From Kiritimatiellia bacterium (GTDB lineage Bacteria; Verrucomicrobiota; Kiritimatiellia; RFP12; DVOR01): 64,000 bases of DNA. Location: contig JAFXKZ010000001.1 of NCBI GenBank assembly GCA_017531445.1, positions 68,534 to 132,533 of the forward strand, written 5' to 3'. A model generated the notes under the pieces. It was given only the letters and a program-made list of their open reading frames with translations, had not been told where the DNA came from and ran no database searches. Positions 5,493 through 22,588 of this stretch are shown in pieces; the stretch's first letter is position 1, and each line of letters begins with the position of its first letter. The position numbers and the translations under genes are program-made.

Positions 5493-5911
5493 AACAGGAA
5501 ACAGTCTACCATATTTTACCCCGAAAAGTGCGTGTTTATGCCGGGAAATCCGCAGGAGGCGCACGGCTTTCTGCCCAGCGCGGCAGAGGCCTCCGCGGCT
5601 GCGTGTATTGAGGTGCCGCCGCTGCGGGAAAAAGACCCGCCCGGAGTTGTTTTTCACTTTCGGCGACATTGCGGGGCGGTATCGCCGAAGTGGCACCCCC
5701 AATCCGCCCGGGATTGCTTCCGTGTTTGGGCGATGTTGAAATGCGTTGCCGGGAAGGCGTTTACGCGCACGCTGTGCTTCTTGCGTGCAGGGTTGACTTT
5801 ACCGTCCGTTTTTACGCGCTGAGCGCACTTGAGGCCCGGGCTTCCATACTTTGGCATCTGCTGTTGAGAAGGCTTTATTATGCTATACTTTCCCTATCGG
5901 GATTGATTTTT

Positions 5912-7198
5912 ATGAAACAACGTCCGGTTTATCTTGTCATTACACCTTATTTTCCATCGCCGTCTTCATGGCGGTGTGCGTTTGTCTATGATCAGGTGCG
6001 CGCGCTTCAGAGAGTTGGAACACGCTACGATGTCCGCGTAGTGAATACGGAAGTGGCGGAGGATTATACCTATGGCGGCGTGCAGGTGATTGCCTGTCCG
6101 CGTCTGCGCCGCGGAGCGGGACTTTGGCCGTGGTATTATGAACAGCGCAACGGACGCAAACTGCTCCGGACGCTTGAAGCGCATCAGATTGATGTGCAGA
6201 CAATCGCAGTAGTGCATACGCATCAAATCCAGACCGTGTGCTTTGCCAATTTCCTCAAACGCGTGAATCCTGCGTTGATGGCCATGGCACAATTTCATGA
6301 TGCCGATCCTTATGCGATGCTGATTTGCGCACGGGGGGATTGGTTCGGGGTGAAGCGGCGGCTCTATTTCCGCTATTACCGCCGCGCAACGGAGCGATTG
6401 GATCGTTGTATTGCCGTGAGTGAGAAGGTAAAAGCGATGCTTGAAACCTTTCCGCAACATCGGGTTTACGGGCACTATGCACCGATGTGCCGCGTGGCGG
6501 CGCGGCTTTCAAATTGCCGCCCGGCACGGCTTCGTGCGGTGGAGGTCCTTTACAACGGCGTTGATGTTGCGCAGTTCCACGCCGATGCGGCTGTGGCGGC
6601 GTCTCCCCGAAAGGCGCACACCCCATTTTGTATCGGCACCATCGGTAATTTCGTTCCCGCAAAGGATTTTCTTGCGCTTTTCCGCGCCTTGCAGTTGCTT
6701 CGCGACCGTCTTGGTGCATGGGAGCTGCACGTTATCGGGAGCGGAGAGACCTTGCCCGAGTGCCGACGTTTCCTTGCCGAGAACGGATTGGAGCAGCAGG
6801 TTCACTTTTTCCCCGAGCGTGCGCACGAGGCGTTGCCGGCATTCTACCATACGCTCGACCTCTTTGTACTGCCTTCGGCTTTTGAAGGGTTCGGGTGTGT
6901 TTTGGCAGAGGCCGCAGCGTGCGGGGTGCCGTTTGTTGCCTGCCATGGACAAGGTTTTGAAGAGGTTGTTCATTCAATCGATCATGCGGAAGGTAAAACT
7001 GCTCTGGCAGAGACTGCGCTTTGCCCCCCCCACGCGCCGGAACTTCTGGCAGAACGGCTCCTTTATGCCTATGAACATTTTGCAGAGGTGCGCGCCGAGG
7101 GAGAAGCCTTTGGGCGCAAGTTGCGGAGGGAGCTTGACATTGAAGTGCTGGTGGGTCGGTTCCTCACAACGTTGCCTTCGCCGCCAGACGGTGATTGA
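5912..7198 (+). CDS. glycosyltransferase family 4 (GT-B)
   Basis: MKQRPVYLVITPYFPS start. C-terminal GT1/GT4 signature FVLPSAFEGFGCVLAEAAACGVPFVA. TGcTATACT extended -10 at 5881-5889. Confidence 0.8.
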   Translation: MKQRPVYLVITPYFPSPSSWRCAFVYDQVRALQRVGTRYDVRVVNTEVAEDYTYGGVQVIACPRLRRGAGLWPWYYEQRNGRKLLRTLEAHQIDVQTIAVVHTHQIQTVCFANFLKRVNPALMAMAQFHDADPYAMLICARGDWFGVKRRLYFRYYRRATERLDRCIAVSEKVKAMLETFPQHRVYGHYAPMCRVAARLSNCRPARLRAVEVLYNGVDVAQFHADAAVAASPRKAHTPFCIGTIGNFVPAKDFLALFRALQLLRDRLGAWELHVIGSGETLPECRRFLAENGLEQQVHFFPERAHEALPAFYHTLDLFVLPSAFEGFGCVLAEAAACGVPFVACHGQGFEEVVHSIDHAEGKTALAETALCPPHAPELLAERLLYAYEHFAEVRAEGEAFGRKLRRELDIEVLVGRFLTTLPSPPDGD

Positions 7199-9212: not shown

Positions 9213-9925
9213 TGAAAACCTTTGTGGTAAATCTCGATTGTCATCCCGAACGCCTAGCACATATTGTGGGACAATGCGCACAACGGGGGCTTACTTTTGA
9301 ACGTATTCCGGCTGTCCATGGCGCAAGTCTTTCACGAACGGCACGAAGGCGCGCCTTTGCAGCTTTCCGTTCGTGGTGTGCCTTGGGGCGGCGTCTGACA
9401 CCGGGAGAAATCGGTTGCGCGCTCTCACATTGTGCAATTTACCGGAGAATGGTCGAGGAAAAGATCCCGGCAGCACTCGTTTTTGAAGATGATGTTATCA
9501 TTGCACCGGCTATCCATGAACGTCTCAAAGACGTGGAAGCCTTTCTGAAGCTTGACCGGCCGCAGGTGGTACTTCTCTCCGCGATCTTCTTTGATGGCGG
9601 AGAGAAGCGCGGTATTCTCAGAAACCGGGATGCGGCATGGGGAACAACGGGTTATGTCATTACGCTTCCGGCAGCAAAACGAATTGCCGATGCCAATACG
9701 CCCGTAGTGGCAGAAGCTGATGCCTGGAAACGTTGGATGCGTCATTGCGGCGTGGAAGTGTATACGTGTTGGCCGGCCGTTGTCTGTCAGGAGGATGCTT
9801 TTGGGACAGCGGTCAATACTGTTCCGCGTAAACGCTTCACCGGATGGAGCAAATGGTGCCATCGAGCCTTGCGCATCCCCCAGCTCCTCGTGGATTGGTG
9901 CTTCTGGATACTGCTCGGGAAATGA
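9209..9925 (+). CDS. glycosyltransferase family 25 (LPS/LOS biosynthesis type)
   Basis: MMKTFVVNLDCHPERL...GEIGCALSHCAIYRRMVEE...ALVFEDDV. ATGA overlap with the preceding stop. Confidence 0.75.
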   Translation: MMKTFVVNLDCHPERLAHIVGQCAQRGLTFERIPAVHGASLSRTARRRAFAAFRSWCALGRRLTPGEIGCALSHCAIYRRMVEEKIPAALVFEDDVIIAPAIHERLKDVEAFLKLDRPQVVLLSAIFFDGGEKRGILRNRDAAWGTTGYVITLPAAKRIADANTPVVAEADAWKRWMRHCGVEVYTCWPAVVCQEDAFGTAVNTVPRKRFTGWSKWCHRALRIPQLLVDWCFWILLGK

Positions 9926-9948
9926 GCCTGCAACCCTTCATTCCCGGC

Positions 9949-10248
9949 ATGACAAAAAAGAAATTCGGAGCATTCTTTTTACAAAATGAACGCTTGGTGA
10001 ATCTTCCTGCCGATATTTCTCCGGACGAAGATCCTTTCACGCAATCGTTTCAGACGTTTAATTGTGTCCATTGGAATGCGGAACTGCAAGCACTGTTCGG
10101 TGCATTCTCAAATTCTGTTTTGGAGTTCTTGCAGGTTTCTGCTGATGCGCTCTTAGAATCACTTTTGTGGTGTGGAGAAGGAAAAACGTTGAAATTTTCA
10201 TTCGACAAGGTGAAATTCTTGGTGGAACTTCGGCTTTTTATAGAGTAA
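9949..10248 (+). CDS. hypothetical small protein (99 aa) in AT-richer islet
   Basis: ORF only (MTKKKFGAFFLQNERLVNLP...), no recognisable motif. It overlaps a convergent 72-aa ORF (10198-10416). Confidence 0.25.
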   Translation: MTKKKFGAFFLQNERLVNLPADISPDEDPFTQSFQTFNCVHWNAELQALFGAFSNSVLEFLQVSADALLESLLWCGEGKTLKFSFDKVKFLVELRLFIE

Positions 10249-10595
10249 ATTTGCAGCGCGTTCAGGTGGGAGATCGGGGGAGAAGAAGCAGAACTTGAGG
10301 ATGCGTTGGAAGAGCTTTTCGAGTGGGGGCCGTACGCATTCAGGCACTTCTTCAACGTTATCTCCGGGAAAGTCTTTTTTTGAATCGCCAATGGCAGCGC
10401 GGATTTTGAACAACAAATGTATTTATCTGGTCAGAGTGACAGTGTGCAGGATGACGATGTGTGTGAAAGGTTTAAGGGTTGCGTGGATGGTTCAAGGGTA
10501 AGAGATAAGATTGAAAGTGGATAATTGAGCGGTTTGAAACCGTTCAATCCGGAATTGTTTTTCGGCAGGGCGTATGCAGAATGAGGTGGACCTTC

Positions 10596-10633
10596 TTCAA
10601 AACAATGCAGGGAGCGGGTAGCCGCTCCCTGCA
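10596..10633 (-). terminator. lysS terminator hairpin
   Basis: 12-bp perfect stem TGCAGGGAGCGG/CCGCTCCCTGCA (10606-10617 / 10622-10633), followed on the minus strand by TTGTTTTG. Confidence 0.6.
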
Positions 10634-10654
10634 GGATTGAACGTATCTACGCCC

Positions 10655-12106
10655 TTAATTTTCGCTCTTCATTTGCGGGAAGAGGATGACGTCACGGATA
10701 CATTCGGTGCCGGTCATGAACATGACGAGGCGGTCAATGCCGAGCCCGAGTCCGCCCGTTGGCGGCATACCATATTCCAATGCTTCGACAAAGTCCTGGT
10801 CGGTAGGTTCTGCATCTGCTTCTACCTGATTGGCGAAAGCGGCGCGTTGTGCTTCGGGATCGTTCTGCTCGGTGTAGCCGGGGCAGAGTTCTTTGCCGGC
10901 AACAACAAATTCAAAAACGTCCACGAGCGACGGATCATCCGGGCAGGCTTTCGCCAACGGTACATACTGCTTGGGGATGCGCGTAACGAAGGTTGGCTGC
11001 CGGAGTGTGCTTTCAATCATCTTGTCGTAGACTTCGTGGGAAAGGGTAACCATGTCGGTGATTTCATCAACAAGTTCCAATCCTGCATCGGCGGCTCGTG
11101 CCCGTGCGGTTGCATAGTCAAGCTCAAACCAATCAGCTCCCATCTTCTCCTTGATGAGTTCTTGCTGCGTTACTTCGCGATACGGCGGTTCAAAGTTGAT
11201 GATTTCGCCGTTTTCGCCATAGGGCACCTGGCGTGTTCCGAGCACGGTATCGCAGAGATAAGGGAGCATTCCCTCGATGATGTTTTTCATCGACGTGCGA
11301 TCGCCATAGGCTTCATAGACCTCAAGAACGGTGAATTCGGGATTGTGTGTACGGTCAATGCCTTCGTTGCGGAAGTCCTTTCCGAGTTCAAAGACTTTGT
11401 CAAAACCGCCGACAATCAGACGCTTCAAGTAGAGCTCCGGAGCGATACGCAACACCATCTCGCGGTCAAGGGCGTTGTGATGCGTTACGAAAGGCTTTGC
11501 GGCGGCTCCGCCGGCCTGCCCCTGCATGATGGGCGTTTCCACCTCAATAAATCCTTTTGAGGAGAGGTAGTTGCGGATACCCAGAAGGATTTTGTGACGC
11601 TTGTCAAAGCGTGCCCGGCTTTCGGGATTGGACATCAAGTCCAGATAACGACGGCGATAACGCTCTTCGGTATCCTGCAATCCATGCCACTTTTCCGGGG
11701 GCTGGCGGATCGCCTTGGAGAGGAGTGTCCATTCTTTGACTTCCACCGTCTTTTCGCCTGCTTGCGTGGTGAAAAGGGTGCCGTGGACGCCGATAAAGTC
11801 ACCCAAGTCGAGCAGTTTGGCGGCGTTGTAGGCTTCTTCTCCCAAAACATCGCGTTTGAGCAGCACCTGAAAGGCATCGGTGCCGTCATTGAGATGAATG
11901 AACATCAGTTTGCCCATACGCCGTTTGGTCATGATACGTCCGGCGACAGAGGCGGCTTTTCCTTCTTCAAATCCTGCACGTACTTCGCTCAAGTTGCCTG
12001 TGCGCGGGAAGGCTTTCCCATAGGGCGCATAACCGAGTTCTGCGAGTTTACGGCGGTTTTCAATCCGTTGTGCGCGGTATTGATCGGGTGTCTTTTCCTG
12101 AGCCAT
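10655..12106 (-). CDS. lysS: lysine--tRNA ligase (class II)
   Basis: Full-length LysS-like sequence (OB-fold N-terminus, class II motifs FRNEGID...HNPEFT, GGLGLGIDRLVM). Start at MAQEKTPDQY, 10 nt after the tkt stop, with an AAGGAA RBS. Confidence 0.92.
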   Translation of the reverse strand: MAQEKTPDQYRAQRIENRRKLAELGYAPYGKAFPRTGNLSEVRAGFEEGKAASVAGRIMTKRRMGKLMFIHLNDGTDAFQVLLKRDVLGEEAYNAAKLLDLGDFIGVHGTLFTTQAGEKTVEVKEWTLLSKAIRQPPEKWHGLQDTEERYRRRYLDLMSNPESRARFDKRHKILLGIRNYLSSKGFIEVETPIMQGQAGGAAAKPFVTHHNALDREMVLRIAPELYLKRLIVGGFDKVFELGKDFRNEGIDRTHNPEFTVLEVYEAYGDRTSMKNIIEGMLPYLCDTVLGTRQVPYGENGEIINFEPPYREVTQQELIKEKMGADWFELDYATARARAADAGLELVDEITDMVTLSHEVYDKMIESTLRQPTFVTRIPKQYVPLAKACPDDPSLVDVFEFVVAGKELCPGYTEQNDPEAQRAAFANQVEADAEPTDQDFVEALEYGMPPTGGLGLGIDRLVMFMTGTECIRDVILFPQMKSEN

Positions 12107-14120: not shown

Positions 14121-14151
14121 AAACCTCTTTTTAAGGCAAAATCAAGCACAT

Positions 14152-14180
14152 AGTATAACAAAAAGTCGCATAGTTCACAA
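14152..14180 (-). promoter_or_regulatory. putative tkt-lysS promoter (TTGTGA-N17-TGtTATACT)
   Basis: Minus-strand -35 at 14180-14175. Extended -10 at 14160-14152. About 30 nt upstream of the tkt ATG. Confidence 0.5.
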
Positions 14181-14359
14181 ACCGCTGCCGCGTAACGCAC
14201 TGAAAACAGGTGTCCATTCATGGTGAAAACCGCAGGTGTGCCTATTTATTTCGGGCGTAGCCATCACCGCGGTGAACCTCCGGGGAAAACGTGGCTGCCA
14301 GTGCTTCGCTCGTCCGGTGCTGTGGAAGCACACGTGTATGCCGGGGGAAAGTGAAAATG

Positions 14360-14455
14360 AACATGGGCGAAACTGCGCGGGAAGATGGGCGAGAGTGCAT
14401 GGGGCACTTGGGCGGAGTTCCTCGCGCACATGGGCGAAGTTGAAAACGAAGGTGG
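14360..14455. repeat. cluster of REP-like 11-mers (three ATGGGCGA copies) plus AAGTTGAAAACGAAGGTGG module
   Basis: AACATGGGCGA at 14360, AGATGGGCGA at 14383, ACATGGGCGA at 14428. The module at 14437-14455 is 18/19 identical to 35167-35185. Confidence 0.75.
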
Positions 14456-14613
14456 CCGTGAAACTTTTTCTTGTGGCGCGGCAACGGAAAAACGGGTGCG
14501 CCGTTCGCGCTTTCCGCTGCGGCAACGTTGCGCCCTGATAGCCTGCTTTGGAGGGGAGATGACGCTTGCTGTTGCGGGGAGGTTTTGATAACCTATCAAT
14601 GGTTACCGGTCAT

Positions 14614-14685
14614 AAAAAAGCCCCATACGGAGTACGTACAGGGAAGTCTTTGCGACTGCGGCATATAGCCTTGTTGTGAAAAGAC
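14614..14685 (-). ncRNA. tracrRNA: tracrRNA (predicted primary transcript, ~72 nt; weak residual anti-repeat homology extends to ~14710)
   Basis: Minus strand reads GUCUUUUCACAAC-AAGGCUAUAUGCC-GCAGUCGCAAAGACUU-CCCUGUACGuacucCGUAUGGGG-CUUUUUU. The first 13 nt are the perfect complement of repeat nt 1-13 (GTTGTGAAAAGAC). They are followed by an AAGG + GGC/GCC nexus-like hairpin, an AGUC/GACU hairpin, and a 9-bp hairpin with U6 terminator. Confidence 0.8.
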
Positions 14686-14691
14686 AGTGTT

Positions 14692-14721
14692 ATTGTAGAG
14701 GATTTTGCCCGGGACTGTCAA
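14692..14721 (-). promoter_or_regulatory. tracrRNA promoter (TTGACA-N18-TACAAT)
   Basis: Minus-strand -35 TTGACA at 14721-14716. -10 TACAAT at 14697-14692. Predicted +1 near 14685. The -35 lies 14 nt from the cas9 ATG and abuts its GGAGG RBS. Confidence 0.6.
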
Positions 14722-14735
14722 ACGGAGGCTTTAAG

Positions 14736-17700
14736 ATGAAGCGTTTAGGGATCGATTTGGGCACGTCGTCTTTGGGTTGGGCGATTCTGGATGATGAACG
14801 GATGTTTGCTTCACCAATAGGGGACGCGGCAACGTCTCCCATTGACTGCGGCGTGGTGATTTTCCCGGAAGGAATGGAGCGGGATAAATCGGATAATCTG
14901 AAATCTCCGGCGGCCTCACGGCGCAGTGCACGGGCGATGCGGCGGTTGATTTATCGCCGGAAATTGCGGAAGTTCCACCTACTCCAAGTGCTGATTGAAA
15001 ACGGTATGTGCCCGCTCAGCGCGGAGGGATTGGCAAAATGGAAGGCCGAAGGGTGCTATCCGGTGCAGGAAGAAGCTTTTATGGCGTGGGTGCAGGCGAG
15101 CAATGACCACAATCCGTATGCCGATCGTGCGGCGGCGGCAGAGCGGGCGGTTGACCCCTTGACGCTTGGGCGGGCCCTCTATCATATCGCGCAAAGGCGT
15201 GGCTTCAAGAGCTCAAAAAAGGAGCAGTTGGAGGCTTTGCCCGGAGAGAGCAAAGCCGGGAAAAATGGGAAGAACTCCACGGAAGCAACGCAAACGAAGC
15301 AGGCAATTGATACGCTCACGCAAGCACTGGAGGCGGAATCGCTCACGTTGGGGCAATATTTTTACAAGCTGTTTTTGGCGAATGCCGCAGCGATTGCCGC
15401 TACGGGAGAATCGGGAACCTCAGAGAGAATCATCGAACGGATTCGCGGACGCAAGACCGGACGCATTGAGCATTATCAGAAAGAGTTTGAGGTGATTGCG
15501 GAGAAACAAGCGTTATCGTTGGAATTAAAGGAACGCCTGGCCTCAATTCTTTTCTTTCAGCGTCCGTTGCGGATTCAGCGTCATACGGTCGGGTATTGCG
15601 CACTTGAAAAGGGAAAATCGGCCAGAAAATATCGCCGCTGCTTAAAGAGTCATCCGACGTTTGAATACTACCGTGCGCTTTGCTTCCTTAATAATTTGCG
15701 CGTGGGTGAGACGTTGCAAGAGGGGAAAGACCGATTGCAAAATGGCGAGGGCACTCCTTTGTCGGCGGAAGAGCGCGCCAAAGTATTGGAGGCTTTGTGC
15801 GAAAAAGATAATTGCACAGTGGAAGAACTTTTCGGGAAGAAAAAGTCGCCTTTGGGCAAAAAGGTCTATACCAATTACCGCCCCTCGGATGATGCTCCCG
15901 TGATGCCGATCCGGGCACGCTTTATGAAGTTGGGGATCCCGGAGGCTCAATGGCAGATGGCGTTGAATGCCGCCATGGATTTTGAAGACCTTGAAAAGTT
16001 GATGGTTTGGGCACAGAAGCCGGAAACCCTTGGGCTCGAACCGAAAGCTGCGCGCACCTTTGCCCGGATGCGCTTTTCGACAGATCGCGCCGATTACAGT
16101 CTCCATGCAATCCGGAAAATCATTCCTTATCTGGAGCGGGGGTTTACGCTGCGCAAGGCCACTTTCTGTGCAAAATTGGGTGACATCATCCCGGCGTTTG
16201 AAGAGAAGCGCGAGCAAGTGTTGCAGGGTCTGTGCGACTGTGAGCGGAATTACGCGGAAGAAAAGGCGCGCCGCGTGCCGGGTGGGTATGGAAAAGTGAA
16301 TCCGCTGGAGACCTACCATTACAAGCGTTATCTCGCCGCGCAATGGGAAGTTTCGGAAGAAGCCTTCAAGCAGTTGTATGTGGATCTCACCGAGACCGAT
16401 GAGGCGAATCCGGTGTTGCCTCCGGTGAATCTGGGCGCGATCCGCAATCCGTTGAGCTGCCGTTCGCTGACGGTGTTGCGGCGTTTGGTGAATGCCTTGC
16501 GTAAAACGGGGAAGATTGATGCCCAAACGCAGATTTTCATTGAATTGGCGCACACGGTGAACAGTGCGAATGATTGCCGTGCGATTGAGCTGTATCAGAA
16601 GGAACAGAAAGCAAAACGTGAAGAAGCCGCTGCCGAGGTGCAGAACATCATTGACGAGCATCATCTTTCCATTACCGTTAATGAAGATACGATTTTACGC
16701 TATTTGCTTTGGGAAGAACAGGAGAAGTGTTGTGTCTACACAGGGCAACCCATCAGCCAGAAAGCGATCTTCACCGACTGTGATATTGAGCATACCATTC
16801 CGCGTTCGCGCGGGGGAACGAATGAACTTGAGAACCTTACCTTGTGTTTTCAACACTACAATCGCAATGTGAAAAAGGGAAAACTTCCCTCGGAGTGTCC
16901 CAATGCCACAGAAGCGTGGTTCGACCCGGAGACGAAGGAAGAATATCCGGCGTTGCAGATAAGTAAACCCTTGAAGCAGTGGCGCGATGCGTTGCATGGT
17001 TTGCAGAAAAAATTGGAGAAAAAACCGAAACGCGGCGGTGATGTTTCGATTTACAATCAGCAACGCATCAAATGGCTGTTGAGCAAGCGCAAGAGGGACT
17101 ATCTGAAAAAGAAATTGGAGACCTTTACAATCACGCGTGACAAGGTGGAAGAAAAAAGCTTCATTCCCCGACAGATGGTAGATACCGGCATCATCACTAC
17201 GCAGGCTGTCAAGTTTTTGAAGAGCCGCTATCGGCACGTTTATACGCGCAACGGTGCTGTTACTGCTGCCGCCCGAAAAGCGTGGGGGATTCAGAAAGAA
17301 GATGAGAAAAAAGCGCGTGTTGACCACATTCATCACGCGGTAGATGCGTGTGTGATTGCGGCACTGGATCCGAAAGCCTTTACGGAAATCTGCACACAGT
17401 TGGGCAAAAATGAGAAAACTACGCGCTGGAATGCGGTTGTGCCGCCGCCATATGAGGACTTTGCACGGCGGATCAATGCGGCGACCGAAAGCGTGTTGGT
17501 GCGGCATTTGCCGTTGAATCGTCAGGTGCGTCCGATTGGTAAGCGGCGGCAACGGGTGCCGCTATCGGTGAAAAAGCAATTGAAGTTTGAGAAGAAGGCA
17601 CCTGCAAAAGCGCAAAGAACCTTGGTGGTGCGTGGCAGTTTGCACAATGATACGCTTTATGGAAAGATCAAAATTGCAGGTGAAGAAACCGTTGTTTTGC

Positions 17701-18428
17701 GCAAGACGATCTCCGCACTTGGCAATGACCTGAAGAAAAATGTGGCAAATGCGGTGGACAAGGCCGTAAGAGAGGCCTTAGAGCAACAGATTGCAACGTA
17801 TGAGGCTCAGGGCATTGCGGTAAAAGACCTGCCCAATCAACGTTATCACCTCCCCTCCGGAATCCCCATCAAAAAGATTCGCGTCAAAATCAGCAAGCCT
17901 AAAAATCCGGATGCACTCCGCGCACAAGCCTTCGCCCCCGATAAGCCCGTCTATGGTTCCGGAAGCGATGCTTTGTGTCTTGAAATCGTCCAGAATAATA
18001 AAGGGGTGAGCGTTCCAATCTATCGAACGCTTCTTCAGGAGGTAAAAGAAACTCGATCGGATGAAGAAAAACGTGCGGTATCTTTCAAAATTTATCCCAT
18101 GCAACTTGCGCTTACGTATGAAAAATCTCCGGACGAATTAAAAATGCTTTCCGGTCGGGAATTGAGTAAGCGACTCTATGTTGTCCGAAAGGTGACAGAT
18201 GATGGTAGAACGACGCTTTACTACCATCGGGAAGCACGACGCTCTACGGTGTTGGGTGAAGAATTAAAAGCGATGGGGAAAAACAAAGAGGGTGCCTCCA
18301 ATGTTAATTTTTCAAGCCCTGAACCATTGCTGCTGGTCACCAAAGGCGTCTTCCTGGAGCATATGCTCTTTGAAGGCGTTCACTTCACGTTGTCAATGGA
18401 TGGTAAAATCGAGTGGATTGATGATTAA
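14736..18428 (+). CDS. cas9: CRISPR-associated endonuclease Cas9, type II-C (1230 aa)
   Basis: RuvC-I MKRLGIDLGTSSLGWAIL, bridge helix SRRSARAMRRLIYRRKLRKF, RuvC-II IFIELAH, HNH CDIEHTIPRSRGGTNELENLTLC..NRNVKKG, RuvC-III HHAVDACVIA. GGAGG RBS at 14724-14728. The track ORF start at 14676 is rejected because it lies in the tracrRNA anti-repeat. Confidence 0.95.
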   Translation: MKRLGIDLGTSSLGWAILDDERMFASPIGDAATSPIDCGVVIFPEGMERDKSDNLKSPAASRRSARAMRRLIYRRKLRKFHLLQVLIENGMCPLSAEGLAKWKAEGCYPVQEEAFMAWVQASNDHNPYADRAAAAERAVDPLTLGRALYHIAQRRGFKSSKKEQLEALPGESKAGKNGKNSTEATQTKQAIDTLTQALEAESLTLGQYFYKLFLANAAAIAATGESGTSERIIERIRGRKTGRIEHYQKEFEVIAEKQALSLELKERLASILFFQRPLRIQRHTVGYCALEKGKSARKYRRCLKSHPTFEYYRALCFLNNLRVGETLQEGKDRLQNGEGTPLSAEERAKVLEALCEKDNCTVEELFGKKKSPLGKKVYTNYRPSDDAPVMPIRARFMKLGIPEAQWQMALNAAMDFEDLEKLMVWAQKPETLGLEPKAARTFARMRFSTDRADYSLHAIRKIIPYLERGFTLRKATFCAKLGDIIPAFEEKREQVLQGLCDCERNYAEEKARRVPGGYGKVNPLETYHYKRYLAAQWEVSEEAFKQLYVDLTETDEANPVLPPVNLGAIRNPLSCRSLTVLRRLVNALRKTGKIDAQTQIFIELAHTVNSANDCRAIELYQKEQKAKREEAAAEVQNIIDEHHLSITVNEDTILRYLLWEEQEKCCVYTGQPISQKAIFTDCDIEHTIPRSRGGTNELENLTLCFQHYNRNVKKGKLPSECPNATEAWFDPETKEEYPALQISKPLKQWRDALHGLQKKLEKKPKRGGDVSIYNQQRIKWLLSKRKRDYLKKKLETFTITRDKVEEKSFIPRQMVDTGIITTQAVKFLKSRYRHVYTRNGAVTAAARKAWGIQKEDEKKARVDHIHHAVDACVIAALDPKAFTEICTQLGKNEKTTRWNAVVPPPYEDFARRINAATESVLVRHLPLNRQVRPIGKRRQRVPLSVKKQLKFEKKAPAKAQRTLVVRGSLHNDTLYGKIKIAGEETVVLRKTISALGNDLKKNVANAVDKAVREALEQQIATYEAQGIAVKDLPNQRYHLPSGIPIKKIRVKISKPKNPDALRAQAFAPDKPVYGSGSDALCLEIVQNNKGVSVPIYRTLLQEVKETRSDEEKRAVSFKIYPMQLALTYEKSPDELKMLSGRELSKRLYVVRKVTDDGRTTLYYHREARRSTVLGEELKAMGKNKEGASNVNFSSPEPLLLVTKGVFLEHMLFEGVHFTLSMDGKIEWIDD

Positions 18429-19326
18429 ACGCACGGTCTGTTTCTCAAATCCGGGGACGCTTCGTCTTCATTTGCGCCAGCTCGTCTGGCGGGGTGAGGA
18501 TGCGCGGGAAACCGCTGTACCGATAGAAGATCTCGGTGTGTTGATTTTGGAGTCACCGTTAATCACGGTAAGCACGGCTTTGTTGCAGGCACTTACGGAA
18601 GCGTGTGTAGCCGTTGTGCTATGCGATGCGGCGCATTTGCCGTCAGGCTATTTACTGCCGCAGGCGTCGCATACGTTGGCAAGTCGCATCTTGCGTCAGC
18701 AGATTGAGCTTTCCGATGCACGGGCAGGGATGTTGTGGCAGCAGATTGTGATTGCCAAAATCCGGAACCAAGCCGCCGTGATTCGGAGCATGGATGCAAC
18801 AAAAGCAGAGGAACTGCTTCAGATGGCAGCGCAGGTAAGGCGGGGCGATGTGACAAACCTTGAAGCGCAAGCTGCCAGACGTTATTTTGAAGCGTTCCCG
18901 ATTCCGGAAGACGTTTTCCATCGGTCGCGGTACGGGACAATGCCGAATGCCGCGCTGAATTACGGTTATGCAATTCTACGTGCTGCCGTGGCGCGTGCGC
19001 TGGTGGGGTCGGGCTTGAATCCGGAATTGGGATTGCACCATCGCAACCAATACAATCATTTCTGTCTGGCAGATGATGTGATGGAGCCGTATCGTCCATT
19101 CGTCGATAGGATTGTTTTGGAGCATCTGGACACCTTTGAAAAGACGGAATATCCCACCAAATTGTCCGCGAAAGGGAAGCAATTGTTACTACCATTCCTG
19201 ACAATGGATGTGCAGCTTGGAGCGGCGACACGACCGCTTTTTAATGCACTTCAATTGACCTCCGCATCGTTGGTACGGTGTGTTTGCAATCAGCAAAAAA
19301 CGCTTGAACTCCCCTCAATTCCATGA
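18421..19326 (+). CDS. cas1: CRISPR-associated endonuclease Cas1 (type II)
   Basis: MIKRTVCFSNPGTLRLHLRQLVW... with typical type II Cas1 features (NAALNYGYAILRAAVARAL, GLHHRNQYNHFCLADDVMEPYRPFVD). The ATG overlaps the cas9 stop (ATGATTAA). Confidence 0.92.
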   Translation: MIKRTVCFSNPGTLRLHLRQLVWRGEDARETAVPIEDLGVLILESPLITVSTALLQALTEACVAVVLCDAAHLPSGYLLPQASHTLASRILRQQIELSDARAGMLWQQIVIAKIRNQAAVIRSMDATKAEELLQMAAQVRRGDVTNLEAQAARRYFEAFPIPEDVFHRSRYGTMPNAALNYGYAILRAAVARALVGSGLNPELGLHHRNQYNHFCLADDVMEPYRPFVDRIVLEHLDTFEKTEYPTKLSAKGKQLLLPFLTMDVQLGAATRPLFNALQLTSASLVRCVCNQQKTLELPSIP

Positions 19327-19670
19327 GTGAAGTCGATTTCTCTGCGATCAATCATTACAAAGCGATGTGGCTTTACGCACTCTTTGACTTGCCGACCGAA
19401 ACGAAGAAGCAGCGGAAAAACGCCGCTCTTTTCCGAAAAGGACTTCTGCAGGACGGCTTTACAATGTTTCAATTCTCGGTTTACATCCGCCACTGTGCTT
19501 CCCGGGAAAATGCCGAAGTCCATATACGGCGTGTTCGCGCAATGACGCCGGAAGAAGGAAGAGTCGCGATTATAGCGGTAACCGATCGCCAATTTGATCA
19601 GATGGTTATTCTCTATGGCGCAAAAGAAAAACCGCCGCCGCCTGCGCCTCTGCAACTCGAACTCTTTTAA
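19323..19670 (+). CDS. cas2: CRISPR-associated endoribonuclease Cas2
   Basis: 115 aa. YKAMWLYALFDLPTETKKQRKNAALFRKGLLQDGFTMFQFSVYIRHC is a typical type II Cas2. ATGA overlap with cas1. Confidence 0.9.
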   Translation: MSEVDFSAINHYKAMWLYALFDLPTETKKQRKNAALFRKGLLQDGFTMFQFSVYIRHCASRENAEVHIRRVRAMTPEEGRVAIIAVTDRQFDQMVILYGAKEKPPPPAPLQLELF

Positions 19671-19782: not shown

Positions 19783-22588
19783 ATTGTATCAAATCCCAAG
19801 AGGGAGTCTTTTCACAACTATTCAACAATCATATTCAACTCCTTTTCTATTGTATCAAATCCCAAGAGGGAGTCTTTTCACAACTCCGTGGCGCATTTCG
19901 TTTTGATTCTCCGCATTGTATCAAATCCCAAGAGGGAGTCTTTTCACAACAGTGAGTCTTGCGTAGGAGTTTTAGAAACTATTGTATCAAATCCCAAGAG
20001 GGAGTCTTTTCACAACTCTGCGTAAATGTCAAGAAGATTCTGCTCCATTGTATCAAATCCCAAGAGGGAGTCTTTTCACAACTGCATAAGATAGGCGGCG
20101 TTGGTCGCGGAGATTGTATCAAATCCCAAGAGGGAGTCTTTTCACAACTCTTCGCGCACGAAATGAAAACTATCAACGATTGTATCAAATCCCAAGAGGG
20201 AGTCTTTTCACAACTGAGCGCATCCACTTCCTCTTGACGCGGCCATTGTATCAAATCCCAAGAGGGAGTCTTTTCACAACCACCAAGTAAATAATGGCAA
20301 AAAAATAGCATTGTATCAAATCCCAAGAGGGAGTCTTTTCACAACCTTCTCTTTCTCCCCGCGTTGGGGTAGTTGATTGTATCAAATCCCAAGAGGGAGT
20401 CTTTTCACAACTGGAACGCCCCGAACGCATCACTGTCCAGAATTGTATCAAATCCCAAGAGGGAGTCTTTTCACAACCACCTGGACGGGCAAGAACATCC
20501 CGTTGGCATTGTATCAAATCCCAAGAGGGAGTCTTTTCACAACGGTGTTTCAGTTCGGGCGATGCTTGAGAATATTGTATCAAATCCCAAGAGGGAGTCT
20601 TTTCACAACCAAAAGACATCCATCTGCACATCCCATGAGATTGTATCAAATCCCAAGAGGGAGTCTTTTCACAACCGGATACCGCCTATAAATACAGCGC
20701 GGAAGATTGTATCAAATCCCAAGAGGGAGTCTTTTCACAACCATGGCTGGGGACAACATTACCAAAGCACGATTGTATCAAATCCCAAGAGGGAGTCTTT
20801 TCACAACATACCTGCTTCGTTGCCGAACAGTCTGCCGATTGTATCAAATCCCAAGAGGGAGTCTTTTCACAACCATAAGGACAAACTTTAGCAGTTGCGG
20901 ATAATTGTATCAAATCCCAAGAGGGAGTCTTTTCACAACTGTCACTGGTGGCGCCGACCACGTATTTTCATTGTATCAAATCCCAAGAGGGAGTCTTTTC
21001 ACAACCTTCTCCAACTGCTGAATTTTTTTCAGTAGATTGTATCAAATCCCAAGAGGGAGTCTTTTCACAACCACTGCTGTTTTTCTCCTCCAGCAGTAGC
21101 AATTGTATCAAATCCCAAGAGGGAGTCTTTTCACAACCCGCGGCGCGTCTTGGACGCATATCAAAAAATTGTATCAAATCCCAAGAGGGAGTCTTTTCAC
21201 AACTTTTTGGCGTAACTGTGAAGTGTCAAGAAAATTGTATCAAATCCCAAGAGGGAGTCTTTTCACAACGGCCCGGGCAGAAAATACGTTATTTTGCTTA
21301 TTGTATCAAATCCCAAGAGGGAGTCTTTTCACAACGTTGCATGGCGTGAAGCGGTTCGCGCCTGCATTGTATCAAATCCCAAGAGGGAGTCTTTTCACAA
21401 CTGGGCACGTGGTCATCGATGCAAGCCTCCGATTGTATCAAATCCCAAGAGGGAGTCTTTTCACAACCGATATACCATTTGTTGTATCTTTTGACGAATT
21501 GTATCAAATCCCAAGAGGGAGTCTTTTCACAACCGATATACCATTTGTTGTATCTTTTGACGAATTGTATCAAATCCCAAGAGGGAGTCTTTTCACAACT
21601 AGTTCTCGCTGCGCCTCCCTACGGCACACATTGTATCAAATCCCAAGAGGGAGTCTTTTCACAACTACAGGTGCGTGGCACTAAGAAGTCGCTTCATTGT
21701 ATCAAATCCCAAGAGGGAGTCTTTTCACAACTGTACGCCGCCGTGGGAGACCCATGCGGAATTGTATCAAATCCCAAGAGGGAGTCTTTTCACAACGAAG
21801 AAGTAGGTGGTGTTGCGTATGTGTTAATTGTATCAAATCCCAAGAGGAAGTCTTTTCACAACTAATCGATTATTAACTCTTCTTTTCCGGACATTGTATC
21901 AAATCCCAAGAGGGAGTCTTTTCACAACAGTTTGCGCAGTTTGCACGTAACTGTTTGCATTGTATCAAATCCCAAGAGGGAGTCTTTTCACAACCGCATT
22001 GAACTTCAAAAAAATAGAACGCCTATTGTATCAAATCCCAAGAGGGAGTCTTTTCACAACAACGAGTGGGTAGACTGCGAGGCCACCATTATTGTATCAA
22101 ATCCCAAGAGGGAGTCTTTTCACAACTAGGCGGATTGGCGAAGCGTAGAGATTTCTATTGTATCAAATCCCAAGAGGGAGTCTTTTCACAACTCTTATTT
22201 ATTAGATTTGTTCGGCCCGGAAATTGTATCAAATCCCAAGAGGGAGTCTTTTCACAACTTCTATTCTGATGAATACGCAGGCTTGCTCATTGTATCAAAT
22301 CCCAAGAGGGAGTCTTTTCACAACCCGGTGACAGGGTCAATGCCGTTTTCGTCAATTGTATCAAATCCCAAGAGGGAGTCTTTTCACAACCCAAAGCAAT
22401 GGCAATTAAAGAAAATGCTAATTGTATCAAATCCCAAGAGGGAGTCTTTTCACAACGTATGTCATCACATCTAATGCCGCAGCCCTATTGTATCAAATCC
22501 CAAGAGGGAGTCTTTTCACAACTTTTGCGTTTGACCTCAAGTGCGCCCGCCCATTGTATCAAATCCCAAGAGGGAGTCTTTTCTCAGT
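19783..22588 (-). CRISPR. CRISPR array with 43 repeats and 42 spacers (36-bp repeat; 40 spacers of 30 bp, 2 of 29 bp)
   Basis: Plus-strand repeat is ATTGTATCAAATCCCAAGAGGGAGTCTTTTCACAAC with 66-bp periodicity. Every unit was parsed by hand. R32 (21827-21862) carries one SNP. Terminal R43 (22553-22588) has 3 changes in its outer 5 nt. Spacers 26 and 27 are identical. Minus-strand orientation is inferred from the canonical II-C GTTGT...ACAAT form, tracrRNA complementarity and the TGaTACAAT embedded promoter. Confidence 0.97.

Follow-up and report, generated by a model that had tools for sequence, protein, structure and literature searches.

The window, by which we mean the whole 64-kb stretch of DNA that was analyzed, contains a complete type II-C CRISPR-Cas locus flanked by transketolase and leuS, for which NCBIfam matches indicated cas9, cas1 and cas2 as the only cas genes, with neither csn2 nor cas4 (cf. 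Table 1). The array begins 112 nt beyond cas2. The nearest homologues of the Cas9 protein were found in Kiritimatiellae and Lentisphaerae gut metagenome bins, and no solved Cas9 structure is close to it, Neisseria-type Cas9 being alignable at the HNH region only (E about 1e-21, phmmer). The tracrRNA gene is divergent from cas9, and only 14 nt separate the -35 hexamer of its promoter from the cas9 ATG. On the plus strand, no promoter for cas9 was found between the tracrRNA gene and this ATG, and window positions 14121-14735 hold no candidate matching at least 9 of 12 consensus positions. Four relatives (L081, L082, L085 and L001) carry TTGACA, TTGACT or TTGCCT, followed at 16 or 17 nt by TAAAGT or TATAAT, on the cas9 strand just past the tracrRNA terminator, so that the 5' UTR of cas9 would there be wholly antisense to the tracrRNA, with the potential for a regulatory duplex between the two and for convergent transcription. 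Between transketolase and the tracrRNA gene, which lie 490 nt apart in the window, ATGGGCGA(A/G) occurs in three copies in about 80 nt (14350-14440), which could represent a candidate regulator-binding site near the cas9 promoter. As for the other cas genes, cas1 of the relative L172 is spread over two ORFs of 178 and 127 aa (9848-10748), by either a frameshift or an assembly error.

Table 1. Positions of the genes, RNA elements and promoter elements of the CRISPR-Cas locus within the window
Feature	Position	Strand	Basis and remarks
Intrinsic terminator	14614..14643	-	9-bp stem 14643-14621, then U-tract; compensatory changes in 5 stem pairs
Predicted primary tracrRNA	14613..14685	-	About 72 nt; start at G14685 deduced from promoter phasing
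Second small hairpin, GUC-GCAAA-GAC	14646..14656	-	Cofold; relatives have GUC../..GAC or GG../..CC (by eye)
Nexus hairpin, GGC-UAUAU-GCC	14660..14670	-	Follows the AA junction; GGC/GCC pairs invariant in 25/25 sequences
Anti-repeat, GTCTTTTCACAAC	14673..14685	-	13 nt; exact complement of crRNA-sense repeat positions 1-13, GTTGTGAAAAGAC
tracrRNA promoter, -10 TACAAT	14692..14697	-	18 nt downstream of -35; A2 and T6 in 18/18 relatives
AAAUCC segment	14700..14705	-	Pairable with repeat GGAUUU; in non-transcribed promoter spacer; judged a chance match
tracrRNA promoter, -35 TTGACA	14716..14721	-	Consensus scan; TTGAC invariant in 16/16 aligned relatives; TTGAC[AG] in 18/18 distinct loci
cas9	14736..18428	+	1230 aa; divergent from tracrRNA gene; TIGR01865, E = 2e-117; homologues found
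cas1 (type II)	18421..19326	+	TIGR03639; coordinates carried over from L086 gene calls
cas2	19323..19670	+	TIGR01573
CRISPR array	19783..22588	crRNA sense -	43 repeats of 36 nt, spacers 29-30 nt; strand set by tracrRNA orientation

When matches to the repeat of at least 10 nt were sought outside the array, on either strand and over the whole window, the 13-mer GTCTTTTCACAAC was the only one found, and no 18-nt stretch within three mismatches of the repeat lies outside the array in the 64 kb. The perfect 13-nt anti-repeat that the earlier note had reported at 14685-14673 is thus present and has no competitor of at least 10 nt. Its complementarity is to positions 1-13 of the repeat as read in the sense GTTGTGAAAAGACTCCCTCTTGGGATTTGATACAAT, which makes the minus strand the crRNA strand, and the array is thus read antiparallel to the cas genes. 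The calculated energy of the repeat:anti-repeat duplex is -18 to -20 kcal/mol. Two compensatory changes distinguish the relatives L001/L004, where the block reads GTCTTTTTACAGC and the repeat GCTGTAAAAAGAC, and the 13-bp duplex is kept.

Read on the minus strand from the block, the sequence runs GTCTTTTCACAAC-AA-GGCTATATGCC and continues with another small hairpin before the 9-bp stem and the U-tract of the terminator. Type II tracrRNAs are recognized by a nexus placed 1-3 nt past the hybrid (an A or AA junction and a stem starting from GGC) and by a Rho-independent terminator (PMC6546382); both can be discerned in the predicted RNA at 14613-14685. The fold of this RNA has a z-score of -3.2, and its scaffold is conserved in 25 diverse relatives. 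An Rfam scan of positions 14300-14900 returned no tracrRNA family, the sole match being ClpQY_promoter with E = 2.9, i.e., a chance hit, and no phage-borne copies of the tracrRNA scaffold were found in IMG/VR. When the free tracrRNA is folded in silico (14646-14685), GUCUUU at the 5' end of the anti-repeat is predicted to pair with AAAGAC in the second hairpin. Since crRNA positions 8-13 also read AAAGAC, the tracrRNA could in this way mask itself.

The promoter ahead of the block was evaluated by a consensus scan with sigma70 hexamers spaced 16-18 nt apart and a start about 7 nt past the -10, criteria that were assumed to be valid for this phylum. It matches the sigma70 consensus at 11 of 12 positions and is the sole site in the 64-kb window, both strands considered, that reaches at least 11/12. 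Only six nt, AACACT, stand between the -10 and G14685. The earlier note had proposed a sigma70-type promoter here, composed of TTGACA, an 18-nt spacer and TACAAT on the minus strand, with a start at about 14685 on the first base of the block. The hexamers are where it had placed them and are conserved in 18 distinct relatives, and the 6-nt gap from which the start is predicted is kept across relatives as well. In all relatives with the 13-nt design, +1 is the G of the block and is preceded by a pyrimidine at -1, which agrees with the usual start-site preference. Sequence conservation thus supports a promoter that is real in the evolutionary sense and a predicted +1 on the first base of the 13-nt block, and a primary tracrRNA of about 72 nt with a 13-nt anti-repeat is, in silico, well supported. 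The conserved promoter also lends indirect support to the expression of this tracrRNA as a small RNA.

Relatives were sampled at 98, 72, 69, 67 and 55-45% Cas9 identity, by comparing the homologous region and genome loci; a metagenome scan with a Cas9 alignment added distant branches only. In 18 distinct loci with Cas9 proteins 45-98% identical to that of the window, the arrangement was TTGAC[AG], 17-18 nt, a -10 with A2 and T6, and a block conforming to GTCTTTT[CT]ACA[AG][CT], with 6 nt between -10 and block (7 nt in two loci). The alignment revealed conservation of the hexamers, the block and the scaffold downstream of it, while the spacer between the hexamers was variable. Together with the lack of upstream complementarity described below, this is what would be expected if transcription started at the block and the DNA upstream of it served as promoter only. 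In the genome comparison that the earlier note had called for, to see whether the 13-nt block alone is kept, the promoter hexamers and the scaffold proved to be kept as well. More remote relatives showed variations of the same layout. A branch with Cas9 35-38% identical also has a sigma70-type promoter, with the -10 mostly 8-9 nt from the block and 1-3 extra paired nt; where its promoter matches are clear, an anti-repeat of about 15 nt with a U.U/U.U mismatch starts 6-8 nt after the -10. The Bacteroidales (47 distinct loci, Cas9 about 30% identical) have 4-9 nt more pairing and an anti-repeat of 17-22 nt, and their TAnnTTTG motif ends 6-15 nt ahead of the first paired base in all but one of the loci (46/47). 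The layouts of these two groups indicate that a promoter abutting a short anti-repeat is a trait of the family, of which 13 nt is the extreme.

Some relatives depart from the common pattern in other respects. L018 (array from 11063, tracr block at 5872) has a repeat, ATTGTGAATTGACAACTTTTTCTGGTTTCGACCAGT, with two U.U mismatches to its own block and a 3' hairpin of another kind, closed by a UUCG loop. The arrays of L002, L003 and L006 (from about 11034 and 9922) run in the direction of the cas genes, and the repeats in them terminate in TAATACAAT or TTATTCAAT and lack the TG of an extended -10; these loci keep the 13-nt design of the tracrRNA, with two G-U pairs, and may rely on a leader promoter and on some processing.

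The earlier note had described the promoter as sitting inside a decayed anti-repeat, with complementarity to the repeat collapsing upstream of the block, a loop of 9 nt against 14 nt and, beyond it, a 6-bp helix at 14701-14706. The collapse, the loop and the helix were all found, but the helix lies at 14700-14705, and the decay itself could not be upheld, as the AAAUCC remnant is at chance level. Shuffling of the 36-nt upstream segment gave a 6-bp Watson-Crick helix in 16% of cases and a duplex energy at least as good in about 11%, and a local-alignment test of the window's promoter spacer against the repeat gave P near 0.95. The AAAUCC segment is also missing in relatives, with the exception of L086, whose Cas9 is 98% identical. 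Given complementarity no better than that of shuffles, we rejected a decayed anti-repeat in the promoter spacer of the window. The same comparison in 14 relatives with a known repeat, i.e., of the upstream 36 nt with the remainder of their own repeat, revealed no complementarity beyond that of shuffled controls. A significant repeat-tail fossil was recognized in the promoter spacer of a single relative, L008/L176, as AAATCCCAAAACGGG (minus strand, 5951-5985; P about 0.005). This sequence is closer to the repeats of other lineages than to its own repeat, ATTATATCAAACCTTAAAAAGGT, which indicates that the sequence upstream of the block has not co-evolved with the repeat; the fossil suggests that the ancestral anti-repeat was longer. 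L174/L175 have six further pairable nt between the -10 and the block, two of them as G-U pairs, which would become relevant if initiation took place unusually close to the -10. With the promoter phasing conserved and no upstream complementarity above shuffles in relatives, the best reading of these sequences is that the primary tracrRNA pairs with the crRNA over about 13 bp.

On the crRNA side, the repeat reads GTTGTGAAAAGAC-TCCCTCTTGGGA-TTTGATACAAT. All 43 repeats contain TGNTACAAT on the crRNA strand and end in TGATACAAT, an extended -10, which occurs only once more in the 64 kb. Extended -10 elements at repeat ends are known from Neisseria (PMC5965381), and the putative element of the window likewise faces the adjacent spacer. 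The crRNAs are therefore probably made singly, from TGATACAAT at the repeat 3' ends; as in Neisseria meningitidis, each would begin some 7 nt inside the spacer that follows, which would leave a guide of about 23-24 nt. Comparison with L086 (11048-12895) revealed identical repeats and not one spacer in common (42 spacers in the window vs 26) in spite of the 98% identity of the Cas9 proteins, which suggests rapid array turnover and points to an active array. Protospacers that might inform on the PAM and crRNA orientation were found neither by megablast of the array against phage genomes nor by a search of two spacers against IMG/VR. Spacers 27 and 28 (21534-21563 and 21600-21629) are identical, CGATATACCATTTGTTGTATCTTTTGACGA, a tandem duplication of one repeat-spacer unit. 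Degeneration of the terminal, cas-distal repeat (22553-22588) is confined to the 5 nt that would pair with the tracrRNA (...TTTTCTCAGT), and the TGATACAAT end of this repeat is intact; L086 has the same degenerate terminal repeat, also cas-distal.

Directly after the pairing block, repeat positions 14-26 can form a small hairpin, which cofolding placed flush against the 13-bp helix. Its pairs 17-23 and 18-22 are found in 11/11 distinct repeats and 16-24 in 10/11, with C-G to U-A exchanges. As the covariation score was reached in 22/500 shuffles, with 11 sequences as input, we regard this covariation as suggestive. Thermodynamically the hairpin is weak (z of -2.2 in the window and near 0 in three relatives). 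The only internal SNP of the array falls within it, in repeat 32 (plus strand G22 to A, i.e., crRNA-sense C15 to U). The earlier note had located this SNP correctly at crRNA-sense position 15; its argument for relaxed constraint carries little weight, because this is a single event inside a hairpin with suggestive covariation, and the change of C15 to U stays compatible with pairing there.

Taken together, these observations make it probable, in our judgment, that the locus encodes a type II-C tracrRNA that starts at or near G14685 and carries a 13-nt anti-repeat, and that it forms its guide from primary transcripts, with crRNAs initiated at repeat-borne promoters. According to this model, transcription would be initiated at G14685 or no more than 1-2 nt away, and the 13 nt at the 5' terminus of the tracrRNA would be the entire anti-repeat, pairing perfectly with repeat positions 1-13 and followed by the AA junction, nexus, second hairpin and terminator, as in other Cas9 guide scaffolds. 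Since the tracrRNA would then have nothing upstream of the 13-bp helix, the long duplex that is normally cut by RNase III would never form, leaving primary transcripts to build the guide complex. Our placing of the 5' end, like the dispensability of RNase III, the formation of the crRNA 3' end and any role of the repeat hairpin, is an inference. Independence from RNase III is plausible, as it fits both the presence of TGATACAAT in 43/43 repeats and the shortness of the predicted duplex; at variance with classical RNase III co-processing, the predicted transcript does not extend 5' beyond the 13-bp helix. RNase III is, though, able to cut some short helices. The median hybrid energies given for tracrRNAs are -39.4 kcal/mol in type II-C and -48 kcal/mol in type II-A (PMC6546382), the 13-bp hybrid amounting to about half the II-C value.

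The most serious alternative, to which we assign a minor though appreciable probability, accepts the 5' end as predicted and requires a nuclease for the production of unit-length crRNAs, be it RNase III acting on the stacked helix, another endonuclease or a 3' exonuclease that trims. Transcripts from repeat promoters must gain a 3' end somehow; the relatives L002/L003/L006, with co-directional arrays and repeats without the TG, probably require cleavage of a pre-crRNA; and RNase III of Neisseria meningitidis still cleaves although it is dispensable (PMC5965381). Residual nuclease processing is a live possibility, even if two points speak against it, namely the lack of any 5' extension of the tracrRNA to be taken off and a duplex energy (-18 to -20 kcal/mol) that is roughly one half of the median for type II-C (PMC6546382). 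We consider it unlikely that a longer tracrRNA is made from an unseen promoter in the first codons of cas9 and that RNase III co-processes a bipartite duplex composed of 13 bp, a loop and at least 6 bp. Such a duplex could draw on the AAAUCC/GGAUUU helix, S. pyogenes does have two tracrRNA promoters (PMC6546382), and the L008/L176 fossil can be recognized upstream of the block. However, no promoter-like site was found on the minus strand at 14722-14900, the 6-bp remnant is at chance level and would have to compete with the hairpin of the repeat itself, and upstream complementarity is absent in the relatives, the L176 fossil being mismatched to its own repeat.

It is very improbable that the hexamers are chance matches, or serve the regulation of cas9, and that the 13-mer is not a working anti-repeat. 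A consensus match alone is no proof of function, and the -35 is a mere 14 nt from the cas9 ATG; nevertheless, both hexamers, and their spacing relative to the block, have been kept in 18 lineages in which the intervening sequence has not, a conserved nexus and terminator follow the block, block and repeat have changed in a compensatory manner, and there is no alternative anti-repeat. Slightly less credible still is a split anti-repeat, in which the 3' portion of the repeat would be bound by a second segment of the tracrRNA body; split anti-repeats are known from some Cas12 tracrRNAs of type V systems (PMC9486595). In 11 lineages, duplexes between the tail of the repeat and the body of the tracrRNA were searched for, which revealed neither energies beyond those of shuffles nor a consistent position, and this candidate was rejected.

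If the tracrRNA is as predicted, the 13-bp helix may be capped by the repeat hairpin, stacked on its end where engineered sgRNAs have their tetraloop; the hairpin might also define the 3' end of the crRNA. These considerations lead to a tentative hypothesis, rather doubtful at present, that RNase III co-processing was lost throughout the Kiritimatiellae/Lentisphaerae clade when the promoter moved against the 13-nt lower stem, the crRNA-borne capping hairpin turning the guide into a nicked sgRNA. In such an arrangement, the 13-bp intermolecular helix would be coaxial with the 3-5-bp crRNA hairpin, and the 5'-triphosphate of the tracrRNA would be located at the nick.

The predicted system has several counterparts among known ones. 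The type II-C system of Neisseria meningitidis resembles it in having a cas9-cas1-cas2 operon only, an array read antiparallel to the cas genes, an extended -10 (TGnTACAAT) at each repeat end and a tracrRNA with an AA junction and a GGC nexus. The long anti-repeat and duplex of Neisseria are cut, although this cut is dispensable (PMC5965381), whereas the 13 nt predicted in the window would leave nothing to cleave; the two Cas9 proteins are, besides, only distantly related. The processing-independent crRNAs of Neisseria were described by Zhang et al. 2013, in the outline of that work given in PMC5965381. Judged from its sequence, the present system appears to work like the Neisseria one but to go further. 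Campylobacter jejuni, another type II-C example, shares the repeat-borne promoters and a short tracrRNA (Dugar et al. 2013, cited in PMC5965381 and PMC3737331), yet its duplex has retained RNase III-type processing sites (PMC3737331). The tracr-S and tracr-L forms of S. pyogenes likewise illustrate that the position of the promoter sets the amount of sequence 5' of the anti-repeat (PMC6546382, bioRxiv 10.64898/2026.06.01.729453), but both forms have a full anti-repeat and yield the same mature form, while no long form is indicated in the window. Homologous tracrRNAs, with the block, the AAGGCTATATGCCG nexus and the terminator, occur at the same position, divergent upstream of cas9, in the sister branches represented by the Bacteroidales (Alistipes and Prevotella; Cas9 about 30% identical) and by Pontiellaceae L078. 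These differ by an anti-repeat of 17-22 nt, a 2-nt U.U mismatch and a Bacteroidetes-type promoter motif. Engineered sgRNAs have a repeat:anti-repeat helix of similar length and, provided that the repeat hairpin stacks, a small loop at its far end; unlike their covalent tetraloop, the window would use two RNAs, with a cap borne by the crRNA and a nick where the tracrRNA begins. In the original sgRNA of S. pyogenes, 12 nt of the repeat were kept. The sgRNAs in a catalogue of 79 orthologs keep 16 nt (PMC7606464).

That the lower stem is the conserved part of the duplex, and that the upper stem drifts, was already known (PMC6546382). Our literature search on short anti-repeats in Cas9 tracrRNAs and on the Cas9 clade of the window found no report, and should the predicted 5' end hold, none of the natural Cas9 duplexes of repeat and anti-repeat that we found described would be shorter. 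Earlier pipelines favored long duplexes, and tracrRNAs appeared weak or missing in several lineages (PMC3737331), which a 13-nt design helps to account for. The locus also offers a compact scaffold, predicted at about 72 nt, for an uncharacterized clade of Cas9 proteins of about 1230 aa without a solved structure. If the model is true, it would provide evidence from evolution, rather than from engineering, that the lower stem alone suffices for guide assembly, and would add a second route to RNase III-independent type II immunity, one that is structurally enforced, whereas in Neisseria processing is dispensable and yet occurs. The predicted tracrRNA would then be about as short as a guide scaffold engineered in the laboratory, in a layout that appears to be common to a clade of related bacteria.
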